This document shows, one piece after another, positions 439-55,600 of a stretch of DNA of 64,000 nt (its first letter is position 1; each line of letters starts with the position of its first letter). The translations under genes and the position numbers were made by a program. The notes below the pieces were generated by a model. It had not been told where the DNA came from. It searched no databases and worked only from the letters and a program-made list of their open reading frames with translations. The stretch comes from Saccostrea echinata (lineage: Eukaryota): NCBI RefSeq assembly GCF_033153115.1, contig NW_026889805.1, positions 5,270,001-5,334,000 of the forward strand, in the 5' to 3' direction.

Positions 439-3117
439 CAACAGGAACATCAGAACTGTATGGAGGAATCTCTGGCTCTTTGTTGTCTGTCACAGGGGGA
501 TCTGTCATGATCTGTAGAGAGGGAGTTTTCTCGGAGGTCTGATGGGATACTTCCTTAATTTCTTTAACTGGTGAACTTGCAGGGGCACCTGCTGTACCCA
601 TGTCTTTTTTGACAGAGGCATCCTTCTTCTGCTTGGTCGTAAGGTTATCAGAGATTGGAGGCTTGTCTCCTATAGCTTCTGTTGATTGTTGCTCTACATC
701 TGCTGTCTTCCTGGCTGAACTTGCAGAGGATTTTTTTGGAATTTTGAATTCCATGCCTACGGATACTTTTTCCTTTGCATCTGCAGTTTTGCTAGCTGGA
801 CTTGTGAGGGATTTTTTTGGAATTTTGAATTCCATGCCTTGGTTTTCTTTTTCCTTTTCATCTGCTGTTTTGCCAGCTGGACCTTTGAAAGGTTCTTGTT
901 TTGAAGTTATGTCTTCCATTTCCTCTGTTGCTTTCTTCTCTACATCAGTTGCTTTCCTGGCTGGAGTGGAAGATGGCTTTTTCTGAGTCTTGCTGTTGAT
1001 TTCTTTGGTTGGTTCTTCTTTTTTGGTGGGTTTGTCTTCGTCTAATTTTGTTGCCTTTGAAACAGATTGTGAACTTCTTTTGCTCTCAGAGGACGTCATA
1101 TGAGTATCTGATTTCTTGTTGCTCAGAACTTCCTGATTCACTGCGAGATCTTCTGCTTTGTTAATTGAGCTTTCCATCTCCTTCCTTTCAGAATCATCAA
1201 TAGACTTCTCTGAAGTCTTGGTCTTTTCAGGTGATTTGGTCTCCGTTATTTCTTTGTCCTAAATTTCAAATCAAGCATAGCTTATTAATCCTAAAAACTC
1301 ATTAACACACAGTACATCTTCACTTCAAAAAATAAAGGAACCTCTATAAACACACGAAAAAAAGTTTTTTGGACATTTAGAATCAGAATATAAAGGTGTA
1401 AATACTGAGTTTAATATAAAATATCGGATACCAGCCATTTACCTCTAGGAGAAATGTTCAAAGATAACTACAAGATGTCCATTGAAGTGGTATTTTTCGT
1501 TTGAATGGGCTTACATAATGACGCCCATTTCATAAGAAAGGAAAGATTCGTCACATGCTTCATTTAAATACCTGTAGAATAGGTATTCAATAAATAGAAT
1601 AGCCAATCAGATTAGCAGTTTACATAAACAATGAGTAACACATGTTCTATCTATACATGTGAAAACTTCAATAAGCATGATAAATTCCTAATTATGTATG
1701 TTCTTTGCAATATGCAAGTTTAACAGAATCGGGGAGTCTTAACTCTCTTCTAACTTCATAAAACCCTCATTTCAGCAACTCTTGTTGCAAGTCGCAGAGA
1801 GTTGGATGTCTTAAAACATTGAGACGAAGATTGCTTTCACATTTCTAAAGAAATGGGCGTGTCTATATGTAACAATTGATGTTCGATAAGACAGACACAA
1901 ACTTTCCATTCAAACTCAAAAATTTTACCACTTCAATGTGCATCATTGTAAGTACTGATGAACAGAAATCACAGTTGCTTACTTATAGGGGAAAACACAT
2001 GCAAATAAAATGTCCAATAATTTATCTTGGCTTTAATAAAATATTAAGAATACTTTAATTGATTCAAAGTGAGTAATATAGTATCGATTTTAATTTATCT
2101 TATTTTAGAACTAAGGGCAGATCACTTTTAATGTATAAACTCCCACATAATTAGAACTCTTTAGTGTGCAGTGTATGGAGGGTTCTTACTTACACAGTAC
2201 ACATAAATTTGATGAAGTCCCTCATATTATTTTTAAAAGTTTGGCTACACTTACCATACTTTCATCCTCAAATCCCACAGTATCCAAGGTAACCAGGTCC
2301 CCAATGTCTGGGAAGAATTCCTGGTCCGAGGACCTATGTCTGTCTCTCTTACTGCGATTATCACTCTAAATAAAGACAAGGTAATACTATCACTCTAAAT
2401 AAAGACAAGGTATTACTATCACTCTATATAAAGACAAAGCATTCCGAGCCTATTGTAGTGCATTTTATACAACTAGAAAACATTCCAGTCAGCAAGGAGC
2501 CCACTCAGAAATATTTATCTAAGGGTGGGTGAATTTGTGATACAGAGAAAATAAAAAGGAAATTTACAGGATACAAAGAAGAAAAATATGAAAGAGGGAT
2601 TGTGATTATGAAAGAGCTAGGTGAACTTGATGCATGAAATGGCCCAGTCCATATACCAATTAAATGACTAACATCTTATGTCCTATTTGAAACATCAATA
2701 TAAAGTAGGAACTTAGCGCTTTCTTTTCCGATAAAAAAAACAAGAGGACCAAGGGTCTTAACAGTCATCTGAGTATAATACAACACTGTAAAGGATCCAC
2801 AGAAGTATAACTAAAGTGAATAATAATAAATAAACTGATAGATGAAGCTATGTTGCTCAAGAGAAAGAAGATATCAGGGATAAAGAAAATAATTAGTCTA
2901 GAACTCGGTAACAAATTTTAAAGTAGATCTCCTTGCCTGTACTTGCCCCCATTTGTCACTATCACCATGCAAATTGAACTATTATTGAACCTATCTCATT
3001 CCCTCTCACAATGGCTTCTCTTGGTCTTTGAAGAATATATTTAACACATTCAAAGATAAGGTATTTTAGTCTCATTTTTATTTATCAATTACTCATTTTA
3101 CAAGTCTATGCAACCAT

Positions 3118-3153
<36 letters not shown>

Positions 3154-52407: not shown

Positions 52408-52602
52408 CTCAAGCAACTTACATAGACTTTTTATTTTAGCATGTACAGTGACATCGTCGCAAGCCAAAGGGTTTGTGTGCATTCTATTTGGACACAAAAC
52501 CCGTGGCTTGCGACGATGGTACAGTGCATACGTGCTTATTTTTCCAGATTAATTAGACACCTCTATATAATCGTGTCTTTCAGATTATACCCATCTACAA
52601 CT

Positions 52603-55600
52603 ATGTCTTCGGAAGCGTTTATTCCTGACTACGAAGAGGAGATGGAGTGTGATCATTTAAACATCGTCAACCTAGCACAGAAAGTGCAAGATAGATACAC
52701 GTCTATGCATAGTTCTGGATTTCGAGATTTTCTTTTGAGACCAGAACTCTTGCGAGCCATCAAAGACCGAGGTTATGAACACCCCTCTCAAGGTAAACCT
52801 CCAGAAAGGACTATAGTCATTCCATCCCTCTCAAGGTAAACCTCCAGGAAGGACTATACATGCGATGCTGTGAAGGAATGATGTATTGAGGTTCGAAAAA
52901 AACTAAGCATCGTTCACAAAGGAAAGACGTGTTCGAAACAGATTTTCTTGAGTGATGGTTCCTTTGGTTATACAGGAATAGAATGATTAAAATCATTACA
53001 AATAACAAGCCTTGAATGGTTAGTGAAATTTATACAGAATGGAGTGAGGGATTCAGTGACTGATTAACAGTACCGAGAAAAAGACTGTAAAATACAATTC
53101 AAGATTTGGAGCTGTCGAGCAAGTGCATTGTGTTTTTTTTTATGTATCTCGGATGCTTGAACTTTTTAATATTTTTCAGTGCAACATGAGTGTATACCAC
53201 AGGCCATTCTATCAATGGACGTTCTGTGTCAGGCAAAGTCAGGAATGGGAAAAACAGCAGTTTTTGTGCTCTCTACGCTCCAACAAATCAAAGAGTCGTG
53301 CGACAAGGTCAGTTTAGATCTATAATCAGAATAGTGTCGTTTATTAATTTCAATATCATTTTTTAACTTCAAACTGAAAATTAATAAACGACACCAGGTT
53401 GACAAAATTAAGACTTTGTGTACTCTGTCATTGTACTGACGAAGGAATAACTTATCCCTCTTATTAAAATTCTAGGTTTTGGTACTAGCCATTGCACACA
53501 CAAGGGAACTTGCCTACCAGATTGCCGATGAATACCAAGCCTTTTCAAAGTTTATGCCAGAGATAAAAGTTGCTGTTTTTTTCGGTGGTCTGTCCATTAA
53601 GAAAGACGAAGAGGTCCTTGCCAGAAACCAGCCGACCGTTGTGGTGGGAACCCCCGGTCGTCTGCTTGCTCTGGTGCAGAAACAGAAACTAAATCTTGAC
53701 AGCCTCCGTTATTTCATTGTGGACGAGTGTGACCAAGTCTTAAAGGAAAATGGTAAACGATATTGAAGTGTGGGAATTTAGGATAGGATATTAATCTTTT
53801 ATTATGGACAAACTTTTTTTGTGATACATAGTGTAGTTTTGGCAGAAACTGTGGATCTGTTGCAGGGATGAGGAAAGACGTACAGGCTATCTTCGTGAAA
53901 TCACCTTGTGATAAACAAGTAATGATGTTCAGTGCTACACTCAACAAAGACCTCAGAACTGTGTGCAGGCGATTTATGAATGATGTAATTATTTTCTCCC
54001 AATGCATTTCTGTTCTTTGTAATAATATATTTTTTGTTTGTGCTCATCTTTAATCATAGTTGTATAGACTATATCAAATGTGAAAGTTAAGGGAAAATCC
54101 TTAACTCTTCTGATGAGCTTAATGATAAAGCCTGAATAAGGAGGGGATTTTCATGCAGATCGATAGACATATCTGTAGTTTACTTGCACAATCATCAATA
54201 GCTTCCCTCTGGAGAAGAATGAAACGTCGTAGATATTGGACTGCTGAAACTGGATAAGACTTTAACATTGGAAAAGCTGCTTTCTGGCAATACAATGGAT
54301 TTCATTAAACTTACCAATTAACTTGTTCGGACTAAATTTTAATTTTTTAATTTGAATAATATATATGACTTCGGGGAATTAATGTGGAAGTCATTGATGA
54401 CATTTTATTTGGAGATGACCCCCCCCCCCCCCTGAAATTTTCATCGAGAAATTGTTCCTGTTCGCCCTTTGATGACAGTCGGATGGAAAAGGTGCGACCA
54501 GGGACAGGTGATTGTTTATGTTCCTGCATTATTTTTAGCCTATTGAAGTAACCATTGACGACGAATCTAACCTCACACTCCATGGACTACAACAATATTA
54601 TCTTACAATGGAAGAACATGAGAAGACAAGGAAACTTTGTGATCTGTTAGACCTGCTTGAATTCAACCAGGTATCTTTGATTGTTTATATGTCAGACACA
54701 GTTATCTTTGATTGTTTACATGTTAAACACAGAAGTACATCCAATCCTTGATTCTGTCCCCTTTCCTTCTAGGTAATCATATTTGTGAGTACTGTCAGTA
54801 GATGTCGAGCGTTAGCCGAGGTTCTACTGGCTCAGAATTTCCCTGTCCTGACAATCCACAGAGCTATGGAACAAACTGAAAGGTGACTTTTTACAAAACA
54901 TGTTACACTATCAAGTATCACTTACAATAGTTTTTTTTAAGTTTTATTCTTTTTACAACAATATCAGAAATAAATTCAAATATAGTTTAAATACAGCGGT
55001 AGTGAAGTTAAGAATGAATGTTTTACAGACTGGCACGGTATCAACAGTTCAAAGATTTCCAGAAGAGAATACTGGTGGCTACAAACTTGTTTGGCCGTGG
55101 AATGGACATTGAACGAGTTAATATTGTCATCAATTACGACACACCCGAAGATTCGGACTCGTATCTCCACAGGGTAGATAATATATGTACGCTTGTTTTG
55201 AACTTTGTTCTTGTTAATTATACCCAGTGTTAGACTCGGTGTAATGTTTAAGATCTATTTACAGGTGGGTAGAGCCGGTCGATTTGGAACAAAAGGACTG
55301 GCCATCACATTTGTTTCTGCTCAGTCAGACGCTACAGTTATGAATTCGGTACAAAACCGGTTTTCTGTAGGAATAGAAAAGATGCCAGTGGAGACTGACA
55401 TTTCTTCATACTGTAAGTTCTTTTACTTTCTCCTCTATAGATTGCATTTGTGAACATGTAAATTATTGGCTTTGCCTTGTTATGTGAAAATTGACAAAGT
55501 TTGCACATTCGCTTCATCCCCTGAGGTCTTGCTTTATTTTTTAGTGAACGAAACTGCATGAAATACGATGGAGTGTCGGTGAAAAGTTTCTCTAGTGTGT

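Follow-up and report, generated by a model that had tools for sequence, protein, structure and literature searches.

Tandem duplications over splice donors in a window of the oyster Saccostrea echinata and in a sample of its conserved genes

Why do short tandem duplications lie on exon-intron borders in one stretch of oyster DNA? The window, the whole stretch that was analysed, comprises 64,000 nucleotides of Saccostrea echinata (contig NW_026889805.1, positions 5,270,001 to 5,334,000 of the forward strand). A sequence-only reading had listed five such duplications and proposed that tandem duplication is tied to splice junctions in this genome. All five were confirmed using Tandem Repeats Finder (TRF) and a diagonal finder; TRF alone misses 41096-41282 and 52780-52858, both of which the diagonal finder detects. 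Own-species proteins and/or RNA contigs support the splice sites of all five, and these belong to four different genes, as had been stated (the DDX39B-like gene has two cases).

Junction duplications in the window

The duplications, together with one array near a junction, are as follows.

2359..2443, minus strand: 29-bp unit, ~2.9 copies, spanning the acceptor of exon 2255-2365 in a ZNF638-like gene
20900..22394, minus strand: 58-bp array, ~16 copies, interrupted by a 545-bp insertion, near a donor and not over it
28881..29537, plus strand: minisatellite of 18 copies of a 36-bp unit, spanning the donor of exon 28763-28906 in a SAPCD2-like gene
41096..41282, plus strand: two-copy duplication with a 106-bp period, over donor 41149/41150 of what we take from its translation to be a C2H2 zinc-finger gene
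52780..52858, plus strand: duplication with a 43-bp period, spanning donor 52792/52793, the first coding donor in a DDX39B-like gene, and including 13 exon bases
54668..54732, plus strand: 31-bp unit, 2.1 copies, beginning at another donor (54670/54671) in the same DDX39B-like gene

The 29-bp unit of the ZNF638-like gene consists of ~22 intron and 7 exon bases. Its acceptor (2365/2366) is backed by own-species protein P0121, and RNA contig pieces of a related oyster stop at 2365 in 4/4 runs. The spare AGs upstream, at 2394 and 2423, are both intact and score 5.4 and 3.3, compared with 5.7 for the real site. The 36-bp unit comprises 26 exon and 10 intron bases, and its donor (28906/28907) is placed by protein model P0125 only. 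In the zinc-finger gene the copies match over 81 bases (84%), and the donor is supported by an RNA contig joint, 41147-41995, with GT..AG in 4/4 runs. Donor 52792/52793 is placed by P0001, and the RNA contigs among those listed read through its intron; these intron-retaining contigs cross the duplication with only 11 gap letters, and the duplication is therefore likely shared with the related oyster. Donor 54670/54671 is supported by an own-species protein and by an RNA contig joint, 54668-54771, in 4/4 runs.

Two positional claims required qualification. Four of the five duplications straddle the border with at least 7 exon bases, but 54668..54732 barely does so, because its exonic part is just 3 bases, CAG, found again at its far end. 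Further, the 58-bp array, described as starting right after a donor at 22404, is near that candidate donor but starts ~10 bases inside a candidate 5' UTR intron and contains no exon sequence. Donor 22404 has a good motif (score 6.4), and both it and the acceptor near 20243 are predicted from motifs alone.

The window duplications are "mirage" minisatellites, a class known from amphioxus and from human F7; units spanning a real boundary, with at least 7 exon bases and a protein- or RNA-backed site, were found in 4/5 cases. The sequence-only reading did not identify them as members of this class. In total, 5/17 window arrays touch a junction. At the rates of the sample described below, ~1.6 arrays would be expected on ~55 window junctions (a hand estimate), and the window is therefore fairly rich in a pattern that extends beyond it.

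Mirages have so far been single-gene curiosities of unknown origin. Those of amphioxus, known in Adh3, the globins BflGb6 and BflGb9, troponin C and PGBD5, are, like the oyster arrays, tandem copies of an exon-intron boundary on the donor or acceptor side; their units measure tens to ~160 bases, splice signals are mostly kept and splicing is normal (PMC3087553, PMC3902484). Copy number differs between haplotypes in amphioxus, as it does between oyster contig pairs presumed to be haplotypes, and the Adh3 mirage is reportedly unstable in somatic tissue as well. The accessible text of these two papers reports mirages gene by gene and calls their mechanism unclear, and we found there neither a background rate nor an enrichment or a ratio of donors to acceptors, unlike the enrichment and ratio measured here. 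In human F7, the first unit of the 37-bp VNTR of intron 7 spans the donor, identical pseudo-donors follow and the most upstream one is used; F7, 6-16 (IFI6), CBS, lamin B2 and PDGF are five single genes, all donor-side, given with no genome-level count in the portion available (PMC1557585). A systematic screen, as in the oyster, was made of human segmental duplications and revealed variable repeats at exon-intron borders (PMC2812944). As far as its available text goes, that study is concerned mainly with how young paralogues create introns and splice alternatively, and a test against intronic background, as applied to the oyster, was not found in it. Another paper, seen in part, concerns repeat length and splicing (PMC10078293). 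We found no genome-level test of donor enrichment in the literature, of which subscription papers, the Adh3 paper and supplements may hold such a count.

Donor enrichment outside the window

The census covered 1.8 Mb outside the window: 148 loci with 1,080 predicted introns, mostly in kinase, WD40 and helicase genes. The loci were picked by hits to these families, and junctions were predicted, not annotated. We counted non-transposon arrays, using a transposon mask that reaches only 7% of the sample, and left out periods >120 as well as L054 and L060, which duplicate L050 and L059; arrays of ~3 or more copies were called multi-copy.

Donors were straddled by 42/136 arrays compared with 8.9 expected, and acceptors by 13/136 compared with the same 8.9 (P 0.12); a within-locus null returned the same expectation as the uniform one. 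Of the 70 multi-copy arrays, donors held 33 (4.4 expected) and acceptors 6; another 17 lay near a junction, and the other 14 in deep intron. Relative to deep intron, multi-copy array density was ~25-fold at donors (locus bootstrap 13-51) and 4.6-fold at acceptors (1.1-11.8), with 4.1-fold near donors and 3.6-fold near acceptors; by count, donors exceeded acceptors ~five times (33 vs 6). Two-copy duplications were weakly enriched (donor, 9 vs 4.6 expected; acceptor, 7 vs 4.6), and the multi-copy share was 33/42 at donors, 6/13 at acceptors and 14/54 in deep intron. Thus, the enrichment over genomic background that the sequence-only reading had named beforehand as its decisive comparison was found outside the window. 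The link is with donors and not with junctions in general, because acceptors stay at the uniform expectation and two-copy duplications are enriched just weakly.

In the sampled conserved genes, copies of an exon end and its donor account for about half of all multi-copy, non-transposon minisatellites in introns, and no other class of these is as large there. A donor array was present in 33/148 loci, and ~1/22 donors in the sample carries a duplication. The repeat type itself is known; no published account of the donor bias was found, and rates by site type make the origin of mirages directly testable.

Could the bias stem from the way exons were called de novo, repeats detected or loci chosen? 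The predicted junctions, the choice of loci, the limited mask and the cut-off on period would allow it, and the pipeline in which arrays are collapsed before gene prediction recovers just 2/5 window cases. We nevertheless regard it as very improbable. Exon calling gave 1,142 exons at P>0.9 compared with 7 on reversed sequence, array detection gave 504 arrays compared with 1 on shuffled sequence, and 31/64 straddled exons match Pfam in the predicted frame. Each strand showed the effect (20 and 13), as did each of the three gene sets, and it persisted after collapsing (58/1,288 donors vs 16/1,295 acceptors; multi-copy, 44 vs 8). Counting all arrays and all intron bases still gave 44 vs 20. GC content was ruled out as the cause, as the donor-acceptor gap persisted in three GC bins. 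Splice-free controls had 1 two-copy array on 54 stop codons and 0 on 48 start codons, which are small numbers, and an unselected block of only 56 introns had 1 donor array and 1 acceptor array.

Spare splice sites and array anatomy

Two distal copies in the window were said to have lost GT through selection against decoy sites. The losses are real (GA at 41256 and TT at 54702), but the distal GT at 52836 is retained, with a score equal to that of the real donor, as is GT in 14/17 distal copies of the 36-bp array. In the sample, GT was retained in 406/465 distal donor copies (L064 was left out, its second copy being too short) and AG in 31/33 acceptor copies, and these counts reject selective loss. 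GT decays at the rate of other bases (divergence 0.08-0.09 compared with 0.094 elsewhere), and positions -2 to +5 diverged like the remaining positions. Frame-preserving periods were not preferred (period mod 3 = 16/21/15).

Another possibility is that extra donors are selected as back-up sites or U1 landing pads that aid exon definition or block premature cleavage. In 42/47 donor arrays a decoy equals or exceeds the real site in strength, and introns with a straddled donor are somewhat longer (380 vs 297, P 0.02). However, GT and its neighbouring positions show the divergence just described, host donors are not weak, switching to the next GT would cause a frameshift or stop in 42/48 donor arrays, and copy number varies freely between paired contigs. 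We consider selected back-up donors very improbable.

RNA contigs of the related oyster, which is ~4.5% divergent and may lack the copies, use the exon-proximal site at 2365, 41149 and 54670. Minor decoy use is reported for 6-16 and CBS, in which the next two donor copies are used as well (PMC1557585, available portion), whereas the oyster is known here from contigs alone. In the Rogers model, introns are gained by tandem duplication when the GT and AG of a copy are used (cited in PMC3087553, seen in part). Among the window RNA joints listed, none used the GT or AG of a copy as a new intron or exon; one predicted case of this kind, L110, looked like a prediction error and was dropped from the decoy-score comparison and the exon-length correlation. 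Donor arrays offer raw material for intron gain and dozens of natural experiments on how a spliceosome chooses among identical donors, and they are a trap for oyster gene annotation and intron-flanking PCR markers.

With copies located by a probe derived from the first copy, that copy, which holds the working donor, lay 0.032 from the array consensus, and copies at the ends of 34 control arrays lay 0.122 from it (P 9e-6). At their far end, donor arrays (0.108) were eroded like controls. In amphioxus, cluster boundaries are described as escaping homogenisation (PMC3087553, PMC3902484, in their accessible parts); in the oyster, the exon-side end copy is nearest to the consensus. Growth from the donor end was rejected: the gradient held in 21 vs 4 of 27 arrays with all copies, and lost significance when the last copy was omitted (16 vs 8, P 0.12). 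Exon length in the unit was uncorrelated with copy number (rho -0.04), and the contrast between short and long stubs was weak (Fisher P 0.04-0.2 across four cut-offs); both results, like the loss of the gradient and the use of a first-copy probe, weigh against the explanation favoured below.

Origin of the donor excess

We lean, tentatively and with not quite even confidence, towards an excess produced by shielding of the exon-anchored copy, disregard of spare donors and removal of most arrays with spare acceptors. Short tandem duplications would arise nearly everywhere, which the ~2-fold two-copy enrichment at either junction type supports in part. Deep-intron DNA turns over fast: after removal of 5/18 near-identical or edge pairs, the 13 paired stretches kept had 1,147 substitutions in 105,035 aligned bases and 17 indels of at least 200 bases, totalling 20,094 bases. 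Junction DNA cannot turn over in this way and would shelter its arrays. The working copy, remaining near consensus as ordinary array ends erode, would keep re-seeding the array. Copy number would drift by slippage or unequal exchange; between contigs taken as haplotypes, which could be recent duplicates, lengths differed in 4/6 comparable sample arrays outside the window (376 vs 144, 641 vs 735, 154 vs 189, 203 vs 214), two arrays of one pair being equal and two further arrays not comparable. Tandem-type indels between paired contigs numbered 6 in 157 kb, 0 of them over a junction, a small number. Spare donors would be neutral passengers, in line with GT decay, with the periods and with the RNA joints listed, which use the donor next to the exon; first-donor choice in human F7 (PMC1557585) also favours this. 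Spare acceptors, transcribed ahead of the real one, would compete with it, and most such arrays would be purged.

Surviving acceptor arrays differ from donor arrays in ways that a splicing filter would produce: their periods are longer (57 vs 42, P 0.016), so are their intron parts (28 vs 15, P 0.06), and their decoys are slightly weaker (-0.71 vs 0). Against the filter, survivors show no AG-loss mark, the decoy is as strong as the real site in 7/10 acceptor arrays, and the BflGb6 acceptor mirage of amphioxus is reported to splice normally (PMC3087553, seen in part). A toy model of anchoring and shelter gave 1-3.3-fold at the measured deletion load, 3-6-fold at twice and 6-15-fold at four times that load, still below 25. 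In the model, shelter thus falls short of the donor excess, and either a splicing filter or donor-linked mutation would have to supply the remainder. Preferential survival of duplications sparing one exon edge, which the sequence-only reading had offered, fits part of the enrichment. Further, acceptor and near-junction arrays are already at shelter level, and a purge would therefore have to happen to offset some two-sided boost.

A lesser, though real, possibility is that shelter gives ~4-fold at both exon edges and that the extra ~5-fold at donors is mutational, arising co-transcriptionally at the 5' splice site. Candidate triggers of repeated germ-line slippage or repair across the donor would be loading of U1, a paused polymerase, the edge of an R-loop, or the 3' end left free when the 5' exon is cut. 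The folds at acceptors (4.6) and near junctions (3.6-4.1) fall in the toy shelter range and donors alone exceed it, the excess sits in expansion, as the multi-copy shares indicate, and the missing AG-loss mark of a purge also favours mutation. Straddled donors were slightly stronger (6.0 vs 5.4, P 0.078). The donor had no preferred place within the unit (KS P 0.79), which fits events that simply run across it, but the distance from donor to breakpoint is not fixed; a fixed breakpoint near the donor was rejected (intron stubs of at most 20 bases, 30 vs 28.1 expected). That splice donors are germ-line hot spots of tandem-repeat expansion, with 5' splice-site recognition writing minisatellites and mirages as its footprint across animals, seems to us less likely than not. 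Either exon anchoring and first-come splice-site choice strongly shape minisatellite survival, or splicing itself biases DNA instability.

A donor motif driving expansion at the DNA level was also rejected. The sense excess in deep arrays (6 vs 1.5) was partly due to fragments that had been split off junction arrays, and after these were merged, donor-like motifs occurred in 3 sense and 3 antisense of 14 deep arrays. This lack of strand preference, which favours the mutational alternative, indicates therefore that a DNA motif alone is insufficient.

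Junction arrays and genes of the window

The window (G000:C56:5270001-5334000, in contig C56 of assembly G000) belongs to a genome of 923 Mb. Three of its genes matched proteins labelled as those of Saccostrea echinata, a rock oyster, at 100% over the queried part: the DDX39B-like gene (protein P0001), the ZNF638-like gene (P0121; family name taken from its relative P0122) and the SAPCD2-like gene (P0125). Exact exon edges were obtained by mapping these three proteins onto the window, and splice joints were taken from contigs of probable RNA runs of a related oyster. The five short tandem duplications that the sequence-only reading had placed on exon-intron borders all exist.

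Tandem arrays at splice junctions of the window, and the 58-base array
Acceptor 2365 (ZNF638-like): 29-base unit including 7 exon bases; both upstream AGs intact
Donor 28906 (SAPCD2-like): 36-base unit of 26 exon and 10 intron bases, 18 copies; distal GT kept in 14 of 17
Donor 41149 (C2H2 zinc-finger gene): second copy without GT
Donor 52792 (DDX39B-like): second copy with an equal GT
Donor 54670 (DDX39B-like): exon side of the unit is CAG only
58-base array: starts within a candidate intron; no exon inside

As a type, these arrays are already known and ordinary: they share the structure of the amphioxus mirage minisatellites and of the human F7-type VNTR.

The 58-base array is split by a 545-bp insertion (21369-21913) with 17-bp terminal inverted repeats beginning CAGGG and a 6-bp target duplicated on both flanks. 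The insertion resembles a DNA transposon of non-autonomous type, a hAT-type group with 6-bp targets being a candidate affiliation. The P0121 model contains stretches missing from P0122 (11864-12642 and 6500-6544), and its mapping required odd splice sites at 12178-12642. An annotation error is the probable explanation, and the exon of 45 bp (6500-6544) may be alternative. Further, the large exon of this gene carries an 81-bp in-frame tandem repeat (27 residues; 697-888), and one of its introns carries broken transposase fragments (14726-15740), presumably Tc1/mariner-like as judged from translation. The DDX39B-like gene (52488-54668) has its first, third and fourth coding introns read through in the RNA contigs from both studies, with the others spliced out; regulated intron retention or pre-mRNA is possible.

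Arrays at donors and acceptors outside the window

We sampled 180 stretches of 10 kb, of which 20 adjoin the window and 160 surround kinase, WD40 and helicase matches; the window itself was excluded from the enrichment counts. A self-trained exon finder yielded 1,142 exons at posterior >0.9 (7 on reversed sequence), and a diagonal repeat finder 504 arrays (1 on locally shuffled sequence). A Pfam match in the predicted frame (E <=0.001) was found for 31 of 64 straddled exons; the 33 without one were mostly short. After fragments were merged and two duplicate loci removed, 1,080 complete introns and 136 arrays (outside the transposon mask, period <=120) were counted. Contigs C175 and C266 of the assembly are short and carry several intron-free, closely spaced ABC-transporter domains, possibly bacterial contamination. 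Near-identical contig pairs (C19/C46, C19/C41, C27/C30, C16/C54, C14/C64 and C39/C52; 89-100% in aligned parts) were also present, and the assembly seems to retain both haplotypes in places.

The sequence-only reading had linked tandem duplication to splice junctions in general. Against the intronic background outside the window, this stood for donors, which were straddled by 42 of the 136 arrays (8.9 expected, P 1e-15), but not for acceptors (13, 8.9 expected, P 0.12). A further 27 arrays lay <=60 bases from a junction and 54 deeper in introns (89.9 expected). Among the 70 arrays of about three or more copies, 33 were at donors, 6 at acceptors, 17 near junctions and 14 deep. The density of such arrays was 25-fold that of deep intron at donors (bootstrap 13-51) and 4.6-fold at acceptors (1.1-11.8; difference P 1.4e-5), whereas two-copy duplications reached only 2.1-fold and 1.7-fold, respectively. 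When every array and every intron base was included, donors had 44 (20 expected) and acceptors 13 (20 expected). When arrays were collapsed to one unit before prediction, 58 of 1,288 donor sites and 16 of 1,295 acceptor sites (totals including the window) were straddled, 44 and 8 by multi-copy arrays; this run picked up just two of the five window cases. The donor-acceptor gap persisted in three GC bins, in each of the three gene sets and on either strand; a block of unselected sequence was too small to be informative.

The general claim thus holds in a narrower, sharper form, namely that multi-copy arrays are concentrated on donors. This bias is measured in one genome, at predicted junctions of conserved genes. 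We found no background-corrected count or donor-acceptor ratio in the literature covered, subscription papers, supplements and the Adh3 paper being outside its scope. Single genes at sampled loci L140, L173 and L107 hold three to four junction arrays in a span of 10 kb; instability is therefore also regional.

Decoy copies and origin of the donor bias

Selection against decoy GTs, suggested by the sequence-only reading, was not borne out. GT was retained in 406 of 465 distal donor copies and in 45 of 52 second copies, and its divergence (0.08-0.09) resembled that of neighbouring bases (0.094); AG was retained in 31 of 33 acceptor copies. The probe used to find copies had 16 bases and tolerated four mismatches, which limits the divergence seen at every position equally. 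Array periods showed no frame bias, the donor lay anywhere within the unit, and host donors were not weak. In 42 of 48 arrays, splicing at the next GT would shift the reading frame or introduce a stop. Array length differed between paired contigs, probably haplotypes, in four of six comparable cases. Decoy copies look neutral.

Intron DNA turnover is fast: 13 contig pairs differed by 17 large indels totalling 20,094 bases, compared with 1,147 substitutions. The working donor copy was 0.032 from the array consensus, while erosion was seen in end copies of 34 control arrays (0.122) and at the distal end of the donor arrays (0.108); the exon end thus acts like a master copy under protection. In a toy simulation that combined anchoring with deletion shelter, enrichment was 1-3.3-fold at the load measured; doubling the load gave 3-6-fold and quadrupling it 6-15-fold. 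Such a model would cover acceptor and near-junction arrays, but not donors.

We tentatively give somewhat less than an even chance to a reading in which the boost at both junction sides is larger than the toy model yields and splicing removes most acceptor arrays. Acceptor arrays would be the target because transcription reaches a spare acceptor earlier than the real one, and a spare donor later; first-donor choice has been shown for human F7 (PMC1557585). Compared with donor arrays, those at acceptors had longer periods, more intron sequence in the unit and decoys of slightly lower strength (P 0.02-0.2), which hints at such removal. That donors instead carry a mutational boost of their own is possible and, in our view, somewhat less likely. 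Donor-array units were A+C-skewed on the sense strand (0.088, compared with -0.008 across donor windows as a whole; P 6.5e-4), and in acceptor units the exon portion was rich in G+T; read outward from the exon, both are A+C-rich.
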